A DNA stretch of 24,507 nucleotides, from the IMG/VR virus record IMGVR_UViG_3300037458_001170, positions 1-24,507 of that record, one strand, 5' to 3'. The stretch comes from a virus. Lineage: Duplodnaviria > Caudoviricetes. Numbering within the stretch: the stretch's first letter is position 1; each line of letters starts with the position of its first letter. Positions 1-16,381 of this stretch are shown piece after piece. The notes below the pieces were generated by a model. That model made no database searches. It was not told where the DNA came from and saw only the letters and a list, made by a program, of their open reading frames with translations. The translations under genes were made by a program, and so were the position numbers.

Positions 1-1653
1 GGCGCGCTTGCCAGTGATCGCACCCGGCAGGCGGCCGAGCGCGCTTGCCCACCGCCCCCCGCGCCACGGGCTGCCGGCGAATACCTCGCCTAGCGCCGGG
101 TGCTTCTGCGCCACGGCCAGGCCTCCGGGGTAGCCTGCGGCCTGCACTTCGGCCACCCAGCGCAGCCCATGCGCCCGCAACGTCATGTCTGACGATCCGC
201 CGAGCTCTTCGCGCCGCGCGCGGTCTATCAGATCACCCAGCGGGGTGCGGGGCCCGCTCTGCCGGGCAGGTGAGCCGAGCAGGTGGGCGAGGCAGGCCTC
301 GCCATCGCTGGCAGCCACGTCTGCCGGCTGGTCATCCCACAGCCACGAGAACCGGCCGAGCAGTTCCTCAGCTTCCATGTCGTTCGGCGCCGCGTCGCGC
401 TGCATGCACCACGCGCCGGCGAGCAGGCTCCCGGCTTGGTCTGCCATGCGGGCGGCGAGGCCGCGCTCGGGGTCGCGCATCTTCCGCGCGAGGATGCCCA
501 GCGTGTCGAGATACCGGGGAAGGCCGGCGATGATGCGCGACCACAACCCGGCCGCGCTGTCATCCGCCCAGGCCTCGAGCTTTGCCAGGTCGAGGAACCC
601 GGCCGCGCGTTCGAGCGGCAGAAAGGTGATGCGTGAGCCGTCCTGCGCATGAAGCGGCGGCGGGTGGATCGATGCCCAGCACACGCACCCCACAGCCTCG
701 AACGTGGTCACATCCGTTCCGCCATCGCCAGCCTGCACCGCGCGCAAGCCCGTCCCGCCCGAGAGCAGGCGCGCGAGCTCCACGAGCTGCTGAAGCCGGT
801 TCGGTGCGCTCTCGCTGTCGTCGCCCTCGTCATAGAGCACCGGCGCCGCGCGGCCTGAGATCAGGCGGCGCAAGCCGGGCTCCGTCGAGCGGTTCACGTA
901 GCTGACGGTTGGCAGCATCCGCGCCACGGCACCCAGGAGCGTCGTCTTGCCCGTGCCACCAGGCGCGAGCAGCCACAGATGCGGGCGCCACGGCACGGCA
1001 TGGCCGAGGGCGGCGACGAACAGCCACCCGGCGAAGATTTCCGCCGCGTCGGGGTCTTGCCAGTTCCACGCACGCAGCCAGGCCACGAGCTGCCGGCCGA
1101 GCTCCTCGCCGCCCGGATCATCTGCCGGCGGGGTGACGGCGCCGGCGCGTGCATAGAATGCATCTTCGAGCACAAGGCCGGGCCTTCGCCACTTCGCGGC
1201 GCCGATCCTCAATTGATCGCCAGCGTGCACGAGCAGCCCGTCGCGCGTCGTCCACACGCCCACCCCGCGCTCGGCGAGGTGCGGAGGCAACACGCCCGCA
1301 TCAGCCGCGCGCGCCATCAGCGCCGCGCCCAGCCTCTTCGCGTTGAACGGCACCGAATGCATGCCGGACCGCTCCGGCGGGCACTCGCGAAGAACCCAGG
1401 GCACTAGGCCTCCGAACAAGGACAGGATTTCAGCCCAGCTCGAGAAGGCGGAGGGGGCGAGCTCGCGCCGCTGCCCGTGAACGTCAATGAACACCGCCAC
1501 ATCGCCCCGCATGCCGAGGGCTGACACGGGGCAATCGAACCACGAGACGGGCCGCTCTTGGGGCGCGGTGCCATCGCCCAGCGTGACCCGCCGCCGCTTC
1601 CGCTTCCGCGCTTCGTCAAGGTCGATCGGCCCGCCTTCTGCGTCATCCGTCAT
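1..1653 (-). CDS. Phage replication P-loop ATPase / helicase-like protein (primase-helicase C-terminal type), 3' end outside window
   Basis: Manual translation from ATG at 1653 (GGGAG RBS 9 nt upstream): MTDDAEGGPIDLDEARKRK...WRPHLWLLAPGGTGKTTLL...APVLYDEGD...QDGSRITFL...LAVAQKHPALGEVFAGSPWRGGRWASALGRLPGA. Open for 551 codons to the window edge, which is why the ORF track lacks it. Walker A (APGGTGKT) and Walker B (VLYDE) present. Confidence 0.8.
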   Translation of the reverse strand, partial: MTDDAEGGPIDLDEARKRKRRRVTLGDGTAPQERPVSWFDCPVSALGMRGDVAVFIDVHGQRRELAPSAFSSWAEILSLFGGLVPWVLRECPPERSGMHSVPFNAKRLGAALMARAADAGVLPPHLAERGVGVWTTRDGLLVHAGDQLRIGAAKWRRPGLVLEDAFYARAGAVTPPADDPGGEELGRQLVAWLRAWNWQDPDAAEIFAGWLFVAALGHAVPWRPHLWLLAPGGTGKTTLLGAVARMLPTVSYVNRSTEPGLRRLISGRAAPVLYDEGDDSESAPNRLQQLVELARLLSGGTGLRAVQAGDGGTDVTTFEAVGCVCWASIHPPPLHAQDGSRITFLPLERAAGFLDLAKLEAWADDSAAGLWSRIIAGLPRYLDTLGILARKMRDPERGLAARMADQAGSLLAGAWCMQRDAAPNDMEAEELLGRFSWLWDDQPADVAASDGEACLAHLLGSPARQSGPRTPLGDLIDRARREELGGSSDMTLRAHGLRWVAEVQAAGYPGGLAVAQKHPALGEVFAGSPWRGGRWASALGRLPGAITGKRA

Positions 1654-1677
1654 GCCCGGCAACTCCCTGTCACGCAT

Positions 1678-1694
1678 TGCCCATTTTGGGCATA
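1678..1694. promoter_or_regulatory. Palindromic operator-like site 1 (TGCCCA-TTT-TGGGCATA)
   Basis: 6-bp inverted repeat with 3-nt spacer; motif recurs at 1711-1729 and 2940-2956. Confidence 0.7.
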
Positions 1695-1702
1695 TCTTCC
1701 TG

Positions 1703-1731
1703 TTGCATCATATGCCCATGTTGGGCATAAA
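1703..1731 (+). promoter_or_regulatory. Putative sigma70 promoter (TTGCAT-N17-CATAAA) overlapped by operator-like site 2 (TATGCCCA-TGT-TGGGCATA, 1711-1729)
   Basis: -35-like TTGCAT at 1703-1708, 17-nt spacer, -10-like CATAAA at 1726-1731; 8-bp inverted repeat covers the spacer and -10; locally AT-rich. Confidence 0.6.
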
Positions 1732-1756
1732 GAGGGGGCGCGGCGCTGATGTCGGG

Positions 1757-1785
1757 CACGAAACGAAAGGGCACCACGATGACGA
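1757..1785 (+). repeat. 29-bp direct repeat copy 1 (CACGAAACGAAAGGGCACCACGATGACGA) containing RBS and ATG
   Basis: Identical to 1970-1998. Confidence 0.95.
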
Positions 1786-1955
1786 TCACGACGATGACGA
1801 TCACCCTTCAGAAAACCCGCCGCGGCTGGTTCTGGCAGGTCGATGGCGAGGACGGGATGACGATCCGCGATGCCGACGCACCGCACGCCACCGCCGCCGC
1901 CGCCGCGCGCGAGGCCGAAGCCTTCATCACCACACGCGAGAAGGCCGGGCGCTAA
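1779..1955 (+). CDS. Small hypothetical protein (58 aa), candidate anti-defence protein
   Basis: MTITTMTITLQKTRRGWFWQVDGEDG...; ATG at 1779 sits at the same position in the 29-bp repeat as the ardC ATG; ORF track begins at 1749. Confidence 0.65.
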   Translation: MTITTMTITLQKTRRGWFWQVDGEDGMTIRDADAPHATAAAAAREAEAFITTREKAGR

Positions 1956-1963
1956 GCCCGGCC
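1943..1963 (+). other. GC-rich hairpin GGCCGGGC-GCTAA-GCCCGGCC with the stop codon of the 58-aa ORF in the loop
   Basis: Perfect 8-bp inverted repeat; no U-tract follows. Confidence 0.7.
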
Positions 1964-1969
1964 ACCACA

Positions 1970-1998
1970 CACGAAACGAAAGGGCACCACGATGACGA
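1970..1998 (+). repeat. 29-bp direct repeat copy 2 containing RBS and ATG of ardC
   Basis: Identical to 1757-1785. Confidence 0.95.
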
Positions 1999-2879
1999 AA
2001 CAGTATCAGGCCGTGACGGATCGGATCGTTGCGATGATCGAGGCCGGCACGCGGCCATGGGCGCAGCCCTGGGGCGCGCCGGGATCGGGCGGTATCCGCC
2101 CCCTGCGCCATGACGGCACGCCCTACCGCGGCGCCAACGTCATCAACCTCTGGGCGGCTGCCCAGGTGCGCGGGTTCGATCAGCCGCGGTGGATGACGTT
2201 CAACCAGGCGAAGGACTATGGCGGCCACGTCATGAAGGGCGCCAAGGCCGAGCTCGCGTTCTATGTCGGCCAGGTGAAGCGCACGGAAGAGAACGCGAGC
2301 GGCGAGGAAGTCGAGCGCAACGTTTCCTTCCTCAAGTCCTACTGCGTGTTCAATGTGGCGGAGATCGCGGGCTTGCCGGCGGAGTTCTACGGCTTCAAGC
2401 GCGGCGAGCTGCTGGACCCCTCCGCCCGCATTCCGGCGGCTGATGCGTTCATCGCCAACACGGGCGCGGCCATCACCTGGGGCGGATCGCGGGCCTATTA
2501 CCAGCCCGCAACAGATCGTATCGCGATGCCTCCCTTTGAGCAGTTCTCGGAAGCTGCCGGCTACTACGGCACCGCGCTGCACGAGCTCGCGCACTGGACC
2601 AAGGCGCCGCACCCGCTTGACCGTGACCTCGGCCGCAAGCGGTTTGGTGATGCCGGCTATGCCATGGAAGAGCTGGTTGCCGAGCTCGCGGCGGCCTTCC
2701 TCTGCTGTGATCTGGGCGTGACGCCCGAGCCGCGCGAGGATCACGCGGCCTATGTCGAGGGCTGGCTTTCGGTGCTGAAGAGCGACAACCGCGCGATCTT
2801 CTCCGCCGCATCCTATGCCGAGAAGGCCGCGGCCTACCTGCACGAGTGCCAGGCCGCGCCGGCCGCTGTCGCAGCGTGA
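1992..2879 (+). CDS. ardC: ArdC-family antirestriction protein (N-terminal ssDNA-binding domain + zincin-like metallopeptidase)
   Basis: YQAVTDRIVAMIEAGTRPWAQPW, YRGANVINLW, WMTFNQAK, VFNVAEI, AYYQPATDRIAMP, HELAHWT (HExxH), YAMEELVAEL, HAAYVEGWLSVLKSDNRAIFSAASYAEKA are the ArdC signature motifs. Confidence 0.92.
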   Translation: MTKQYQAVTDRIVAMIEAGTRPWAQPWGAPGSGGIRPLRHDGTPYRGANVINLWAAAQVRGFDQPRWMTFNQAKDYGGHVMKGAKAELAFYVGQVKRTEENASGEEVERNVSFLKSYCVFNVAEIAGLPAEFYGFKRGELLDPSARIPAADAFIANTGAAITWGGSRAYYQPATDRIAMPPFEQFSEAAGYYGTALHELAHWTKAPHPLDRDLGRKRFGDAGYAMEELVAELAAAFLCCDLGVTPEPREDHAAYVEGWLSVLKSDNRAIFSAASYAEKAAAYLHECQAAPAAVAA

Positions 2880-2880
2880 C

Positions 2881-2922
2881 GCATGCCCTAGGCGGAGGCC
2901 GCGGCCTCCGCCCTCGGCATGC
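2881..2922. terminator. Long hairpin after ardC (perfect 22-bp palindrome GGCGGAGGCCGCGGCCTCCGCC at 2891-2912 plus outer GCATGCC/GGCATGC stem)
   Basis: Inverted repeats read directly; no clear U-tract, so the terminator role is uncertain. Confidence 0.5.
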
Positions 2923-2939
2923 GCCACGGTGGCGCAGGC

Positions 2940-2956
2940 TGCCCAGATCGGGCATA
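2940..2956. promoter_or_regulatory. Operator-like site 3 (TGCCCA-GAT-CGGGCATA)
   Basis: One-mismatch copy of the 1678/1711 palindromes, upstream of the 85-aa ORF and HTH gene; overlaps a -10-like TAGTGT at 2955-2960. Confidence 0.65.
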
Positions 2957-2984
2957 GTGTAAACCGCAACAGGGAGTGAGAGAG

Positions 2985-3242
2985 ATGGCCAGCGAAGCTT
3001 ACAGCGCGATTGTTGCCCACATGACCGCCAACGGGCTGAACGACGCGAACATGGTGGAGGAGTTCTTCCGCACCGAGACAGACGCACAACTTGTAGACGA
3101 GATGATCAAGGGCCACGGGCTTGACCGCGTGCTTGTTGACGATCGGCGGTCGTGGATGGCAGAGCACGGCGTCAGCCGCGCCGATCTCATCGACCTGATG
3201 GCGCTTTATCGCGATGCGTTCGCGGCAGAGCGGGCGGCATGA
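2985..3242 (+). CDS. Small acidic hypothetical protein (85 aa), candidate anti-defence protein
   Basis: MASEAYSAIVAHMTANGLND...; GGGAG RBS about 8 nt upstream; 16 D/E vs 8 K/R; stop overlaps the next ATG (ATGA). Confidence 0.7.
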   Translation: MASEAYSAIVAHMTANGLNDANMVEEFFRTETDAQLVDEMIKGHGLDRVLVDDRRSWMAEHGVSRADLIDLMALYRDAFAAERAA

Positions 3243-3439
3243 CGCCCGACCGGCTTCTGGAATGCCTCGACATCCTGGGATGGTCCCAGCGCGCGCTGGC
3301 GGCGCGTCTGGGCTATCCGTCGCACACGAGCGTGAAGCAATGGGCGCAAGGCCGAGGCCGCGTCCCTGATGACGTGGCGCGCTGGCTCGAGACGCTGGCA
3401 CGCCACCACGAACGGCACCCGGCGCCGCCACGGGGGTAA
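3239..3439 (+). CDS. Small XRE-type HTH regulator (66 aa), Aca-like position at end of island
   Basis: MTPDRLLECLDILGWSQRALAARLGYPSHTSVKQWAQGRGRVPDDVARWL: GWSQ..LA..LG.....V..W..G...VP HTH pattern; ATGA coupling with upstream gene. Confidence 0.8.
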   Translation: MTPDRLLECLDILGWSQRALAARLGYPSHTSVKQWAQGRGRVPDDVARWLETLARHHERHPAPPRG

Positions 3440-4075
3440 TCACGCGGCCACCATCACGCGGGGGAGGTCGGGCACCTGCCGGCGCATGAACCGCTGCACC
3501 GCCTCGCCATGCGCCAGGTCATCGCAGATGATCGGCGCACGCTGCGCGCGGAGAAGGGCTTGTTTCTGGCTGGCGGTGCCGAGCGGCAGCACCCCGGCGG
3601 CCAGGCCGCGCAGCCAGGCCATGGGGCTCTGCACCAGGCGCAGCGGCGCATCTGGGTCAACCGTGCCGAGCGCGTCGGCGTCGGCCGTGAGCACCGCCCG
3701 CACGCGCGAAAGCGTGGCATCGCATGCCGCGATGTCGCGCACATCAGATCCCATGAGAGGCTCCGCCGCCGCGCCCAGGGCATCGCGCAGCGCCGCGGCC
3801 TCCGTCTCGCCCGGCTCGCCTTCCACCTGCCAGGCCGCCCAGCCGCGCACCGCCACGAGCCAGCGATGCGCCCGCACGGGCGCGGGCTTGTCGAGGTCGG
3901 GCGCAAGCTGGAAGAGCTCGCCTTGGTCGACCACGGGCGCGAGCGTCAGCACGCCATCGAGCAGCGCGAGCACCGAGGGGCTTGTCACGGTAGGGAACAC
4001 GCGCGCGATGAGGTCGGCCGAATAGACGCGCCGCTGGTAGGCCTTCGCCGCCTGCCACACCGCCCCCGCGTCCAT
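3440..4075 (-). CDS. Phage hypothetical protein (211 aa), possibly a replication-associated degenerate TOPRIM-like protein
   Basis: TGATG coupling to the upstream gene; C-terminal LRLVQSPMAWLR...GVLPL...IICDDLAHGEAV; position in the early operon; function is inference. Confidence 0.6.
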   Translation of the reverse strand: MDAGAVWQAAKAYQRRVYSADLIARVFPTVTSPSVLALLDGVLTLAPVVDQGELFQLAPDLDKPAPVRAHRWLVAVRGWAAWQVEGEPGETEAAALRDALGAAAEPLMGSDVRDIAACDATLSRVRAVLTADADALGTVDPDAPLRLVQSPMAWLRGLAAGVLPLGTASQKQALLRAQRAPIICDDLAHGEAVQRFMRRQVPDLPRVMVAA

Positions 4076-6148: not shown

Positions 6149-6502
6149 ATGAACCTGCGATGGAGCATTCCGGCCGGCATCTGGGGCACCATCCTTGCGG
6201 TGGCGCTGCTGGCGACGGTGGCGGATCAGTATCGCCCCATCTCGCTGCTCGTGCGCGCCGCCGCCGTTGCGTTGACCGACCCCGTGCTGCTCGTGCTGGC
6301 CCTCGTGGCCGGGTTCGTCGCGCGAGACGCGCGCGCCTTCATCGCCCTGAGCCTGCTCGCCGTGCTGGCCGCCGCCACGGCCGAAGCGCTGCTGCACCCA
6401 GTCGATCCGTGGGGCTATTCCCTGGCCCCGCAATTCGTCGCCGGCCTGGGCTTGGCGTCGATCACCTGGGCCATGCGGCCGAGGCCCCTATCGGCCGGGT
6501 GA
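6149..6502 (+). CDS. Multi-pass membrane protein (117 aa), possible superinfection exclusion / lysogenic conversion
   Basis: About four hydrophobic segments; directly downstream of cI; AGGGGG RBS. Confidence 0.6.
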   Translation: MNLRWSIPAGIWGTILAVALLATVADQYRPISLLVRAAAVALTDPVLLVLALVAGFVARDARAFIALSLLAVLAAATAEALLHPVDPWGYSLAPQFVAGLGLASITWAMRPRPLSAG

Positions 6503-6545
6503 AATTTACCTTGTGACACCCTATCGCATGGGGTAACTTTCTCCC
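6497..6545. promoter_or_regulatory. OL-like region: two 16-bp operators (6497-6512 GGGTGAAATTTACCTT; 6530-6545 GGGGTAACTTTCTCCC)
   Basis: 6530-6545 differs from 5631-5646 at one position; upstream of the rightward operon. Confidence 0.75.
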
Positions 6546-6568
6546 GTCATCAACGGCGGGAGGTTCCC

Positions 6569-6709
6569 ATGCATTCGCGAGACGACGACATCGCCAGCCC
6601 CTGGCTGGTCGGCGCCACCGTGCTGGTTCTCAGCACGCTCGGCGCGATCGGCACCTTCGCCATGATCTGGGCCGTCTGGATCATCGCCGTGGCCCTGGGG
6701 GTGGCGTGA
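6569..6709 (+). CDS. Small hydrophobic protein (46 aa)
   Basis: MHSRDDDIASPWLVGATVLVLSTLGAIGTFAMIWAVWIIAVALGVA; GGGAGG RBS; TGATG overlap with next gene; not in the ORF track. Confidence 0.65.
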   Translation: MHSRDDDIASPWLVGATVLVLSTLGAIGTFAMIWAVWIIAVALGVA

Positions 6710-11516: not shown

Positions 11517-13979
11517 CTACTGCTCGGGGCCGAGCGCGGCGGCGGCGGCCGGCGCGCGGGAAGGGGATGCCTCGCCAGGCCGCCACCAAAACTCCTGGCC
11601 GTAATCGCGGCGGGCGTTGTTCTCGATGCGGCGGAACTTGCGGGCATAGTCTGGGTCGAGCATCTCTTGCAGCCGATCCCACATCAGCCGGTCGAGCGCG
11701 AGCCGGGCATACCAGAGAGAGGTGCCCGGCGTGTTCATTCGCGCGAAACGGGCGAGCTCGCCGCCGAAGTTGGTGTCTTTGCTCTCGGCCAGCCCCTGGA
11801 TGTTGCCGCCGGTGACGCGCGCCAGGTCGTCGACCAAGCCCGCCATCGGCCCGCCGATCGCCGTCATGTAGAACCCGCGATCGGCCCGCGTGAGGCCCGA
11901 ATAGAGGAAGTCGCCGAAGATGCCCGCGCCGCCGCCCTGGGCGAACGCGGCGCCCCAGAACGCGGGCTGCGTCATGTCGCGCGGGTCGCGTCCGTTGGCG
12001 AGCTGCTTCAGTTGCATCGCCAGCGCGCCCATGACCGTCAGGCTCACGGCCAGGCCCACGAGATACTTGCCCTTGTCGCCGCCCCGGTAGCCTTCGATCC
12101 CGCGCATGAGATGCGTCGTCATCATCGTGACCGGGAAGGTCTTGAGCTGCGCGGTCGATCGCCAGAACTCGCCTACCAGCGTGCCGGCCTGCGTCTTGCC
12201 CATGATGAGTGCCCGCTCGCGCGCCCCGGGCTTGGGGATGGCGAAGTCGCTCTCGATGTTCACCCACTGCATCAGCCGTGCCGCGGCGTCAGCCTCGCGT
12301 CGGCCGAGCTTGGCGATGCTCTCGGGGTGGATCACGCGGCCGATGCCGCCGCCCGGGTCGAAGGCCGGCGCGGCGCGGATGATGTTCCAATCGTCGGCGC
12401 TGATGCCGTTGCGCGCCATGCCGCGGCGGAATTCGGGGCGGAGCTGGTCGAACGTCTTGCCGGCATCGTCGGCCAGGCCGCCGAGAAGCTCCACCTGAAA
12501 CGCCCAGGTGCCGGCATCCGTGTGCACGTTGAGGCCCGAGGCCCGCAGCACTGTGTCGGCGGTGCGGCTGCCCAGGCCGGCGCCCACGATGTCGGCCTGA
12601 TGCCGCTGCGAGGCCGCCGCCACGCGCGCCCAACCCTCGGCGATCAGCCCGGTGCGAACCGCCGCCGCGCGCGCCTCGCCGCTGGTCAACATCTGCATGT
12701 AGCGGCGCATGACATCGCTGGCGGGAATGCCGTTCCACGCTGCTGTCATGCGCAGCGTGCCGAAGTCGGTCACGGCCGAAAGCGTGGCCGAGCCGAGCTT
12801 CGCCGCCGTGATGAAGGCGCGCGTCTCGCGCATGAACCCGGCCGCTGCGCGGTTGACCGCGCCGGTGCTGGCCCCGCTCACCGTGTCCCACAGCGCCTCG
12901 AGGCGATAGGCCTTGCTGTCGCCGATGCCGGCCTTCCGCGCGGTGTCGATCACCACCTGCGCTTGATGATGCGCCGAAGGGCCGAGCACCTCGAGCATGC
13001 CGATGTCGCGGGCGATGCCGTCGAGGTGCTGGGTGAGCAGCCCATAAATGCCGATGCCGTCGCCCGCGCCGAAGCGCTCGTTCGCCTCGAGCCAGGCCTC
13101 GGCCGAGGTCCACTCGAACGCGCGGCGCTCCTCCCGGCTGTTGGCCAGCCGCCCGGCCTGCACGCGGCCGGGGATCAGATCCGATAGACCATCGGTGGTA
13201 ATGCGGTCATAGGCGTTGCTGATGATCTCGGCCGTGCGCAGCGGGTCCAGCGCCTCGCCGGTTTTCCAGTCCACCACGCGCAGCTTGCCCGCGGCCACGA
13301 GGTCATGCAGCGCATCGGAGAACTGCGCGCGGGTGAGCGTGCTCACGCGGTCCTTGTCCCAGACCTGGGGCAGCCGCCAGTCATCGCGCTTCCATGTCCG
13401 CCCCCCGCCATCGACCCAGCGCTTGCGCGCATACTCGGCCGCATCGGTGAACCCGCGCGCCGCGGCTGCCGCCACCCCGTCGCCGGACGGCTCGCCGTAG
13501 AGCTCGCGCACCATGTTGCGCAGCCCCATCGTGTCGCGGGTGAGGCCGAGGGTCTTGCTGCGGTAGGCGTCGAGGAAATCCACCACCTTGCCATGCAGGA
13601 TCGCCAGCACCGCGCGGTGCCGGCCCTCGACGGAGGAGCCCGCCGCGGCGGCATCCGTCACGGCGTCGGCGTTCATGTCGCGGGCGAAGATCGCCGCTGC
13701 ACCGGCATAGGCACCACGCGGATGGTTCTCGATGCGGTCCATGAGCTCGGCGTGGCGCAACACCTGAAGCGCGTTCTGCCGCTTGCGCAGCCGCGCCTCC
13801 TCCTTCATCTCGGCCGCGACACGCGCCAGCGCCTCGGCCTCGTCCTTCGGCACCTTCGCGCCGTTCTCCGCCTCGAGGTCGCGCACCCGGCGGAGGATGT
13901 CCTCCGCCTGCTCACGCTTCAGCGTGCCGCCTTCCACGCGATCATTCAGGCACTTCTCAAGCCGCCGATCGGCGCTCAT
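11517..13979 (-). CDS. Large internal virion / DNA-ejection protein (820 aa)
   Basis: GEFWRSTAQLKTFP...HLMRG, hydrophobic segment, GRDPRDM...FWGAAFAQGGGAGIFGD, NTPGTSLWY, typical of the last ejection protein of BPP-1/epsilon15-like podoviruses; directly before the fibre gene. Confidence 0.75.
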   Translation of the reverse strand: MSADRRLEKCLNDRVEGGTLKREQAEDILRRVRDLEAENGAKVPKDEAEALARVAAEMKEEARLRKRQNALQVLRHAELMDRIENHPRGAYAGAAAIFARDMNADAVTDAAAAGSSVEGRHRAVLAILHGKVVDFLDAYRSKTLGLTRDTMGLRNMVRELYGEPSGDGVAAAAARGFTDAAEYARKRWVDGGGRTWKRDDWRLPQVWDKDRVSTLTRAQFSDALHDLVAAGKLRVVDWKTGEALDPLRTAEIISNAYDRITTDGLSDLIPGRVQAGRLANSREERRAFEWTSAEAWLEANERFGAGDGIGIYGLLTQHLDGIARDIGMLEVLGPSAHHQAQVVIDTARKAGIGDSKAYRLEALWDTVSGASTGAVNRAAAGFMRETRAFITAAKLGSATLSAVTDFGTLRMTAAWNGIPASDVMRRYMQMLTSGEARAAAVRTGLIAEGWARVAAASQRHQADIVGAGLGSRTADTVLRASGLNVHTDAGTWAFQVELLGGLADDAGKTFDQLRPEFRRGMARNGISADDWNIIRAAPAFDPGGGIGRVIHPESIAKLGRREADAAARLMQWVNIESDFAIPKPGARERALIMGKTQAGTLVGEFWRSTAQLKTFPVTMMTTHLMRGIEGYRGGDKGKYLVGLAVSLTVMGALAMQLKQLANGRDPRDMTQPAFWGAAFAQGGGAGIFGDFLYSGLTRADRGFYMTAIGGPMAGLVDDLARVTGGNIQGLAESKDTNFGGELARFARMNTPGTSLWYARLALDRLMWDRLQEMLDPDYARKFRRIENNARRDYGQEFWWRPGEASPSRAPAAAAALGPEQ

Positions 13980-16381
13980 GTCGCGGCCCCCGCTGTCATG
14001 CCGAGCAGGCAGGCCGCCGCCTCGGCCGCCACCGTCTCGGCCTCGTCCGCTTCGTCAAGCAGTTGCCGGGCCGGAACCATGCGCGTGGTTCCGTCCGCGT
14101 TCTGCACCGGCACCAGGCGGTCATCCGCCGCCGCCGCGCGCTGCGCATCGAGGAACAGGCTGCGGTCAACGTCCGCTTCCGGCGCGCGCACGGCATCGGC
14201 CTCGGCCGCCGCGCGCGCGGCCCTGACGTTCGGCGCCACCTCCGGCGCCGGCGGCGCCTCTGCCCGCGGCGCCGGAACCGGCGCGCCGAACATGTCGCGT
14301 TGCTGGGTGGCGATGGCGGCCTCGGCATACTGGCCAAGCCGCTCGGCCACGGTCGCGCGGCCTGCCGCGCCGCGGAACTGCGGCTCGCGAAAGAACGTCG
14401 CGAGGAAGCCGAGCGCCACGTCCGACAGGCCATCATCGAACATGCCGCCATTGGCCACATAGTCGGCCACGGCCACGCCGCGCGCGCGGGCCGTCTCCAC
14501 CGTCCGCACCGCCTGCACCAGCTCGGCCGTGCGGTCGCTGCCAGGCGCGAGCACGCCCTCGGCGTCGAGCGCACGCATCTGCGCCCACAACGGCGCCACG
14601 TCCTCGAGTGCGCCGCCGATCGCCTTGATGTCGGTGTCGGGGTTCTCGAGCAGCTTCTCGGTGATTCGCGGATCGTCGCCATAGGCGCGGGCGAGGATCG
14701 CCGCGCGCATGCGCCGCGCCCCTTCGATCGAGAGCGTGCCGTCCGTGGTCGCCAGCGCCCGGCGCTCGGAGCTCGGCACCTGGGCGACGAAGGCGCGCAC
14801 GAAGTCGAGGTTTTCCACCTTGCCGATGTCGCCGCCCTTGTGCAGCCCGATGATGGCATCCAGCCGCCGCGCGTCGATCGTGGCCTGCTCGGCCACGCCC
14901 ATGCGCGCCACCGCCGGCGCGTTGGCCTCTTCCGCCATGGCCGCACGCTCGGCCGGGGTGAGCGCCGTCTCGCGCCGGGCCACGAGCACCGGCTCGCGAT
15001 AGCGCGACAGGTCGAAACCCTGGCTTTCCAGCCAGGCGCGGTAAGCCTGCCAGCGGTCGGGCACCTCGGCGCGGGCGAGAAGCATGGCCATCACCCGGCC
15101 ATTGCCGCTTTCCACCACGTTGTCGGGCCCGACGATCGGCGCGCCCGTGCCGGCCTCGGCCGAGCGGCCAAGCAGCTCGGGGTTGAGGCCTCGCGCACGC
15201 TCGCGCGTCTCCGCGACATAGGCGGGCGAGGAACGGTCACGCGGCTGCAACCCCTCGCCATGCGGATAGGACGCATTCAGCCGCCCATCGGGCGCGTGCG
15301 AGGGGATCAGGTCATCAAGCTCGGCGAGCTCATAGCGCACTTCGATTGCCCGCCCCGCCGGGGTGAACACGCGCGCGCCTTCGGTCGGCGGCGGCGGGCG
15401 GCCGGCATAGACCACCGGCTCCGGCTCGGGCGCGCGGGGCACGGGCGGCGGTGGGTTCTCCACCTGCGGCAGCCGCCCCGCTGCCACATCGGCCATGGCG
15501 CGGTCCATTGCCGGGCCGTGCGCGGCGGCGGTGGCAAGGCCGCCGGGGTTGCCGGCCTCGTGCATTTCCACCGCCCGCGCCGCGCCGGCGGTGGCAGGGT
15601 CGCGGCCGGTCAGTGCGCGGAAGCCCTCGAGGATGCCGCGAAGCCCGCCGCCGAGGATCGCCGCGCCGCCGGCGGCAAGCGCGATGTCGCTGAAGGGGTC
15701 GGGCGTGATGCCTGCCGCCTGCTGCGCCGGGCGGTTGAGCGTGGTGGTCACGGCCTGCGCCGCGCCGCCGATGGCGCCCTCGATCAGCGCCGTCTTGCCC
15801 AGCCGGGCGAGCAGCCCGCCGGCCAGCACCGAGGGCGCGCCGATCGGCAGGGTGGCGAGCTGCACCGGGTCGGTCACGATCGCGGCGGCCATGCGCGCGG
15901 CGAAGCCCGCCACCTCGGCGCCGACGCCCTCCGAGGCAGCGGCGGCGCGGGCGGCGTCATCCTGCGCCCGCCGGGCACGGGCGCGCGCGCCCTCCTCGAT
16001 GTCGAACGGGTCGGGGAACTCCTCGGCGAACTCGGGCGAGCGCTCGCGCGCCTGCCGGGCCGCCTCGCGCCAGGCTGCCACCGCTTCGTCACGCGACAGG
16101 CGCCGCGCACGCCCCTGCATCAGGACATCAGGAATGCCGGCGTCCTGCGAGACGCTGGGCAGGGAGAACGGATTTTCGGGTGGGGCGATACCGGCGCGGC
16201 GGAAGGCCTCCCCAGCGGCTTCGTAGGCCCGATATGGGGCCAATTCCGTCAGCCCCCACCAGCCGCGCAGCTTCTGCGCCTCCCAGTCGGCCGCCATGCG
16301 CTCCTGCCAGCCGACCGGAACCTCGGCGAGCGGCACATCAGGAACGGGTGAACGGCGGTCGCCGTGCAGGTCGAGCAGCAT
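13976..16381 (-). CDS. Internal virion protein (801 aa) with ddrB-like ParB domain
   Basis: Y.LAELDDLIPSH..DG..N..YP...LQPRDR...LNPELLGRS.EAGTGAPIVGPDNVVESGNGRVMA matches the ddrB-ParB pattern; N-terminal hydrophobic/Gly-rich segments; within the ejection gene cluster. Confidence 0.75.
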   Translation of the reverse strand: MLLDLHGDRRSPVPDVPLAEVPVGWQERMAADWEAQKLRGWWGLTELAPYRAYEAAGEAFRRAGIAPPENPFSLPSVSQDAGIPDVLMQGRARRLSRDEAVAAWREAARQARERSPEFAEEFPDPFDIEEGARARARRAQDDAARAAAASEGVGAEVAGFAARMAAAIVTDPVQLATLPIGAPSVLAGGLLARLGKTALIEGAIGGAAQAVTTTLNRPAQQAAGITPDPFSDIALAAGGAAILGGGLRGILEGFRALTGRDPATAGAARAVEMHEAGNPGGLATAAAHGPAMDRAMADVAAGRLPQVENPPPPVPRAPEPEPVVYAGRPPPPTEGARVFTPAGRAIEVRYELAELDDLIPSHAPDGRLNASYPHGEGLQPRDRSSPAYVAETRERARGLNPELLGRSAEAGTGAPIVGPDNVVESGNGRVMAMLLARAEVPDRWQAYRAWLESQGFDLSRYREPVLVARRETALTPAERAAMAEEANAPAVARMGVAEQATIDARRLDAIIGLHKGGDIGKVENLDFVRAFVAQVPSSERRALATTDGTLSIEGARRMRAAILARAYGDDPRITEKLLENPDTDIKAIGGALEDVAPLWAQMRALDAEGVLAPGSDRTAELVQAVRTVETARARGVAVADYVANGGMFDDGLSDVALGFLATFFREPQFRGAAGRATVAERLGQYAEAAIATQQRDMFGAPVPAPRAEAPPAPEVAPNVRAARAAAEADAVRAPEADVDRSLFLDAQRAAAADDRLVPVQNADGTTRMVPARQLLDEADEAETVAAEAAACLLGMTAGAAT

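Follow-up and report, generated by a model that had tools for sequence, protein, structure and literature searches.

An inserted, Aca-like and probably autoregulated early cassette with ArdC aboard, whose cargo may include new blockers of bacterial immunity

Four plus-strand genes lie between two leftward genes of a temperate, podovirus-like phage, of which a 24.5 kb fragment with 71% G+C (the whole stretch analysed, hereafter the window) carries an integrase, an excisionase, a cI-like repressor, and capsid, tail tube and internal virion genes. From left to right the four encode a 58-aa orphan protein (1779–1955; alternative gene calls give 68 or 53 aa), a 295-aa ArdC anti-restriction protein (1992–2879; PF08401, PF18818, phrog_7245), an acidic 85-aa protein, predicted to be all-helical, whose small family has no name (2985–3242), and a 66-aa four-helix HTH protein (3239–3439; HTH_31, E 7.7e-6; model pLDDT 92.5) that is likely an autorepressor, the last two genes overlapping by ATGA. 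An ORF check placed all four exactly where an earlier note on this DNA had them. The left flank is a P-loop NTPase gene (1–1653, minus strand, running past the window edge) with homologues in L015, L018, L173 and L174; an NCBIfam search gave it no match, and its Walker A/B-like motifs lead us to infer a helicase-like role. The right flank, a 211-aa gene (3440–4075, minus strand), overlaps the NTPase gene directly in relatives that lack the cassette. Its product was matched by protein search in two of 401 genomes of the family of G001 (Rhodopila sp., the genome containing L055), and the site is empty in two of two related prophages, where the 211-aa and NTPase genes share four bases (GTGA in L173, ATGA in L174). 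The 1.79 kb between them in the window is therefore an insertion, which agrees with the inverted placement in a leftward operon that had been described earlier. Homologues of the flanking genes occur in the G001 family and the nearest relatives of the cassette HTH are on alphaproteobacterial plasmids, so the phage likely has an Acetobacteraceae-type host. Elsewhere in the window (13976–16381, minus strand), an internal virion-type protein contains a DdrB-like ParB domain (PF18763), which is typical of phage polyvalent proteins (PMC5512222).

The 58-aa gene looks like a removable module. A 29-nt direct repeat, overlooked in the earlier note, occurs in two identical plus-strand copies, at the 58-aa gene (1757–1785) and at ardC (1970–1998), in each case over the RBS and start. 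Contigs of run X4 are ~7–8% different from the window in ardC and the NTPase gene, and one of them (183 nt, depth 2.1) joins 1754 to 1968, skipping 1755–1967; the 213-nt gap equals the spacing of the repeats, and the 58-aa gene is thereby absent. Thus the X4 relative seems to run promoter P1 (see below) directly into ardC and, judging from this one low-depth contig, appears to lack the 58-aa module. Behind ardC is a 60-nt GC-rich hairpin with no U tract (2872–2931, no strand assigned), also missed earlier and without a Rfam match at the gathering score, which we infer to be a terminator or RNA stabiliser.

Three palindromes mark the regulatory DNA of the cassette. The motif TGCCCA-N3-YGGGCA occurs exactly at 1678, 1713 and 2940 and at no other site in the window, so that the threefold palindrome reported earlier stands and is confined to the cassette. 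In a post-hoc-safe test, one of 200 shuffles had any three palindromic 17-mers of near-identical sequence in a 1.3-kb span; a looser test on 5-bp arms alone was not significant (25 of 100 shuffles). Predicted operator copy 2 (1711–1729) has perfect 8-bp arms around a 3-nt spacer and occupies the spacer and –10 of a predicted promoter, P1 (1703–1731, plus strand; –35 TTGCAT, 17 nt, –10 CATAAA). Predicted copy 1 (1678–1694), 35 nt upstream, shares 14 of 16 arm positions with copy 2, and predicted copy 3 (2940–2958, plus strand) overlaps a CATAGT –10-like box in the same register as P1, a possible weak promoter (P2). With a matrix built from relatives, the window excluded, P1 scored 35.7 against 4.2 for the next-best site; a generic sigma-70 scan found no promoter. 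P2 is doubtful because its –35 (TGGCGC) is poor and the copy-3 site falls outside the top five plus-strand sites of that matrix. Two palindromes had been said to overlie promoter hexamers; the family matrix bears this out for copy 2 and P1, whereas the pairing of copy 3 with P2 is far less secure. Judged by eye, the repeats that flank cI/cro and lie upstream of 6569 resemble GGGGTAACTTTCTCCC, another motif, and the earlier distinction between the palindrome and CI-type operators was correct. Two such repeats (6501–6546) precede the rightward genes at 6569 and are likely a second CI-controlled promoter.

Relatives of the HTH were gathered by alignment-based scans (two overlapping IMG/VR sets of 21 and 28 loci, with 9 more loci from genomes and 38 from metagenomes). 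They occur mostly in alphaproteobacterial phages, prophages and plasmids, with a match in 36 of 301 genomes of the G001 family. At phage loci the HTH typically closes a run of one to six genes, and a check of gene neighbourhoods, proposed in the earlier note, found variable small upstream genes and no fixed core-gene context. The shared leader has a constant order: a T-rich tract, a TTG-type –35, 17 nt, a TATA-like –10 under the palindrome, a hairpin and the RBS; in L038, L039 and L063 it is present two or three times. Of 69 HTH loci that are not identical to one another, the matrix finds the family promoter at 36, its own 28 seeds among them. It occurs at just seven of 31 further genome loci and one of eight plasmid loci, and thus many HTH homologues stand in other settings, a point we count against the reading favoured below. 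We found no description of this HTH family in the literature, where supplementary lists of Aca candidates may include members, and it is apparently undescribed. Seven cassettes (L033, L042, L045, L048, L064, L071, L085) adjoin homologues of a single phage gene of ~160 aa, which makes it a second hotspot of insertion, and in L144 and L145, from family members with small genomes, a cassette has inserted next to HigA-like HTH genes in the morphogenesis region of a prophage. Divergent plasmid homologues of the HTH (L027, L028, L031) have TGTGTYCA-N3-YGRACACA just before their own start (~2947–2980), which suggests that they autoregulate solo.

The operator sequence tracks the recognition helix of the HTH in what is, so far, a correlation. 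Over 37 promoter-bearing loci (the window among them; L069 was dropped because its frame was misplaced, and L047 was put in manually), the operator core CGCR-N3-YGCG was found at 20 of 22 loci with an E-G/A/S-T-V/I-R-Q-W helix versus one of 15 whose helix differs. Because the loci are related, and most matrix seeds came from the former group, these counts are not independent and do not make an independent test. The window HTH has the recognition helix SHTSVKQW, with a one-residue insertion, and all three window operators carry a symmetric CCC/GGG change.

The leader also contains a predicted 5' hairpin (1738–1757, plus strand), overlooked in the earlier note, which is a variant of the family motif CCG-A-GGC-loop-GCC-CGG with a shifted bulge and one mismatch. 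Over 27 leaders, 88.3% of the cells of the family hairpin are paired, a level reached in none of 500 shuffles; six cells show two-sided change and just three of seven pairs covary, in leaders that are related in sequence. Rfam gave no match to the leader hairpin, and the leader predicted for P2 lacks one of this kind. The hairpin's layout agrees with that described for the RNA motif bound by Aca1 (PMC13551039). By analogy with Aca1 and Aca2, the P1 leader hairpin may be a second, RNA-level target of the HTH.

How close does this bring the HTH to the Aca proteins? The top Foldseek match of its model is Aca2 (TM 0.78, rmsd 1.7, E 0.022), followed by HigA2, MqsA, Aca7, Aca10 (TM 0.71) and Aca1 (TM 0.70); no fold match reaches E 0.001, which again counts against our reading. 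Among Aca sequences in the PDB the best matches were Aca3 (E 0.099) and Aca2 (E 0.14), and Aca1, Aca7 and Aca10 gave none at E ≤ 10, where AcaFinder asks for E < 1e-10 and coverage > 60% (PMC9765179). One accession of the HTH family was absent from the available part of a published supplement (PMC9410906). As in the acr–aca operons of Aca1, Aca2, Aca7 and Aca10, small genes are followed by a terminal HTH, here a small HTH that ends a short-gene operon in a mobile element; a conserved inverted repeat covers the core promoter, with a second upstream and more before neighbouring genes; and a ~20-nt 5' hairpin has 3-bp lower and upper stems (both as described in parts of PMC13551039 and PMC9410906). 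Unlike Aca2 (115–125 aa), the window HTH has 66 aa, its operator differs from the sites given for Aca1, Aca7 and Aca10 in the available parts of PMC9410881 and PMC12658196, and no operon contains a proven-Acr homologue among the 63–70 cargo proteins compared with Pfam, PHROGs and NCBIfam, the cargo including instead a 295-aa ArdC. The proposal of an Aca-like autorepressor thus survives in its architecture, in the way the operator at the –10 varies with the helix and in Aca2 as top fold match, but sequence comparison with the PDB puts the protein in no Aca family; it is Aca-like by architecture, yet cannot be assigned to Aca.

ArdC is the one cargo gene with a ready functional precedent. The window protein matches the R388 ArdC structure (6i89) at E 7e-67 and is intact, with ArdC-N and zincin metallopeptidase domains and with the HExxH motif and glutamate metal ligands kept, in which it resembles R388 ArdC and plasmid establishment genes; it differs in lying in a podovirus-like temperate phage. 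In R388, ardC is under the control of ArdK. R388 ArdC binds ssDNA and counteracts type I restriction–modification in recipients (PMC7213743), and ArdC-N has been described as rare in phage-type polyvalent proteins (PMC5512222). Relatives of ArdC are encoded at 23 IMG/VR loci, and in L014 a distant HTH (26% identity) directly precedes ardC. On the other side of the same NTPase gene, L015 (3630–5305) and L018 (3715–4933) contain an inverted ardC run with a TTGACA promoter, a TGTC-type palindrome unlike the window's and a leader hairpin; no family HTH was detected in these runs, and ardC cassettes may have a hotspot at the NTPase gene. A further set of IMG/VR contigs (L006–L012, L016, L017, L019, L020, L023) has a 57-aa gene followed by a longer ArdC fusion (470–515 aa in most), and L018 has a small gene similar to the 57-aa gene.

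The two small proteins are harder to place. A homologue search with the 58-aa protein returned only itself, no Pfam or PHROG family or PDB match was found, and the single lead is a weak DUF1508-like one. The 85-aa protein, with a pI of 4.6 as acidic as the earlier note had said, has seven known family members, itself included, and its all-helical model (pLDDT 84) found no Foldseek match (best E 3.7), PDB match or toxin family. One homologue lies directly before a family HTH (L033), another behind a family promoter at a contig end (L176), and P0014 is a sequence without gene context; four of five further homologues have no family HTH within 1.5 kb, which also weighs against our reading. In L177 (1474–1824) and L178 (1504–1743; both oriented) the gene sits between two housekeeping-like genes, which we take to be 5-formyl-THF cyclo-ligase-like and metallophosphoesterase-like, and the L178 copy has an internal stop.

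Cargo across the family is diverse, with 69 genes in 59 clusters, the window's three included. The 66 non-window proteins have a median length of 73.5 aa; 16 are acidic and 33 basic. Searches of Pfam (63 proteins), PHROGs (63) and NCBIfam (70) found no Acr or anti-defence family, and PADLOC gave nothing beyond weak coiled-coil matches in one of 24 proteins. HNH-related cargo is present in L040 and L074. A 66–106-aa coiled coil with a hydrophobic C-terminal helix and a weak phrog_6330 match recurs as sole cargo, the gene before the HTH, in L036, L046, L055, L060, L088, L147, L150, L153, L154, L158 and L161, and is a candidate membrane-anchored exclusion or defence protein. The basic half of the cargo and this hydrophobic-tailed coiled coil are likewise counted against our reading. 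Nor did the earlier suggestion that the 58-aa and 85-aa proteins are anti-CRISPRs fare well: neither shows homology to a known Acr in Pfam, PHROGs, NCBIfam or the PDB, the cargo searches found no Acr family and mostly non-acidic proteins, not one of the 112 other HTH loci, a set that takes in duplicates and short contigs, has ArdC, which also counts against the reading below, and most further 85-aa homologues stand apart from a family HTH, as noted. An anti-CRISPR function specifically is much less probable than a general anti-defence one.

On balance, we lean slightly towards the following reading. The insertion would be a temperate-phage cassette in which the HTH represses its own promoter, and in which ArdC and the two small proteins aid the incoming DNA against host defences. 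Its parts differ in strength: the cassette is very probably autoregulated by the HTH, and an anti-defence role beyond ArdC alone is probable. On phage entry host RNA polymerase would fire P1, since no HTH is present; the burst would yield the 58-aa protein and ArdC, and the 85-aa protein and the HTH would be made by read-through or from the weak P2. HTH dimers would then bind at 1678, 1711 and 2940 and block the –10 boxes, and this shut-off would limit transcription against the leftward early operon. Recombination between duplicated leaders is the likely way in which cargo genes come and go. Binding of the HTH to DNA and to RNA, the timing of events and whatever defence the two small proteins might act on enter this scheme as suppositions, and the benefit of an ssDNA-binding ArdC, known from R388, to a dsDNA phage is conjecture, which is a further point against it. 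A bolder version, possible and put forward tentatively, would have a new Aca-like family of Acetobacteraceae-type phages silencing at both DNA and RNA level, with ~60 unrelated counter-defence proteins swapped at duplicated leaders and the 85-aa protein a defence inhibitor of new fold beside ArdC.

The best-surviving alternative, which we judge rather unlikely, is that of an autoregulated moron whose cargo, the two small proteins included, serves mostly host takeover, lysogenic conversion or superinfection exclusion, with ArdC a one-off passenger. The cargo without anti-defence families in Pfam, PHROGs and NCBIfam, the restriction of ArdC to this one HTH locus, the recurrent coiled coil (L036, L055, L060, L088, L147, L150, L153, L158), the HNH-related genes and the chromosomal 85-aa homologues that stand alone in L177 and L178 all fit it. 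Against this, a homologue has been tested for just one cargo gene, and that gene encodes an anti-restriction protein; negative feedback on a strong promoter is what a burst on entry would call for (PMC13551039); the PADLOC matches were few and weak; and blank cargo searches are to be expected because most known Acrs belong to no family (PMC9765179).

A true acr–aca operon, with the 85-aa and/or 58-aa protein inhibiting CRISPR-Cas and the HTH a new Aca, is distinctly improbable. It shares with the acr–aca1 layout (PMC13551039) an operator over the –10, another operator further up and a leader hairpin of 3+3 bp whose end is ~20 nt from the start, the 85-aa protein is small and acidic, and Aca2, Aca7, Aca10 and Aca1 are among the HTH fold matches, but no operon of the family has an Acr homologue in the three databases and neither small protein has a PDB match. 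It is very improbable that the palindromes serve another regulator (a co-resident phage CI or a host factor) and that the HTH has a different job. Other phages do have the same palindrome, placed alike relative to a promoter, in the interval between their divergent cI- and cro-like genes (L118, L122/L123, L125, L126, L127, L131, L135, L143), where it apparently serves as a CI/Cro immunity operator, and the family HTH was found in none of 29 palindrome-pattern loci; we count this against our reading, too. In the window, however, the three copies keep to the cassette, the cI region has its own motif, and across the family a different HTH helix goes with a different operator. Least credible of all is a toxin–antitoxin pair of an 85-aa toxin and a HigA/MqsA-like antitoxin stabilising the prophage, for which the high rank of the C-terminal domains of HigA2 and MqsA in the fold search and the ATGA overlap speak, since the gene before the HTH varies by locus where HigBA and MqsRA have a conserved RNase toxin gene, Pfam and NCBIfam gave no toxin family for the cargo, 85-aa homologues occur without the HTH, and neither a toxin family nor a toxin fold was found for the 85-aa protein.

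Our preferred reading, an autoregulated cassette that aids incoming DNA, has parallels in other viruses. T4-like PeSL cassettes are repeated promoter and stem-loop modules before variable non-essential genes, shuffled by recombination between copies (PMC2839356); the repeated leaders of L038, L039 and L063 and the X4 module lost between repeats resemble them, but PeSL stem-loops are terminators and no dedicated repressor is named in the abstract of that account, whereas here the hairpin belongs to the 5' leader and every cassette brings an HTH of its own. In archaeal viruses small genes that are otherwise unrelated can be recognised by a strong, conserved early promoter, and some have been shown to block CRISPR or toxin–antitoxin defence (PMC11065993). 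The shared strong promoter before unrelated small genes is common to both; here the phages are bacterial, the promoter is of sigma-70 type and the cargo function is putative.

Counter-defence genes have mostly been found via neighbours such as Aca regulators. This HTH family with its easily searched leader is bait of the same kind, and gives a first list of ~60 unrelated small candidates from alphaproteobacterial mobile elements. With its natural operator and helix variants, specificity can be tested directly, and the conserved hairpin probes whether dual DNA/RNA control reaches beyond the known Aca families. A phage-borne ArdC raises the question of what use a protein known from conjugation is to a dsDNA phage. 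If the cargo is not anti-defence, a tidy family of autoregulated morons remains. We suggest that the cassette is likely anti-defence in this phage, that its cargo may include new blockers of bacterial immunity, and that the HTH family is a new bait for counter-defence genes.
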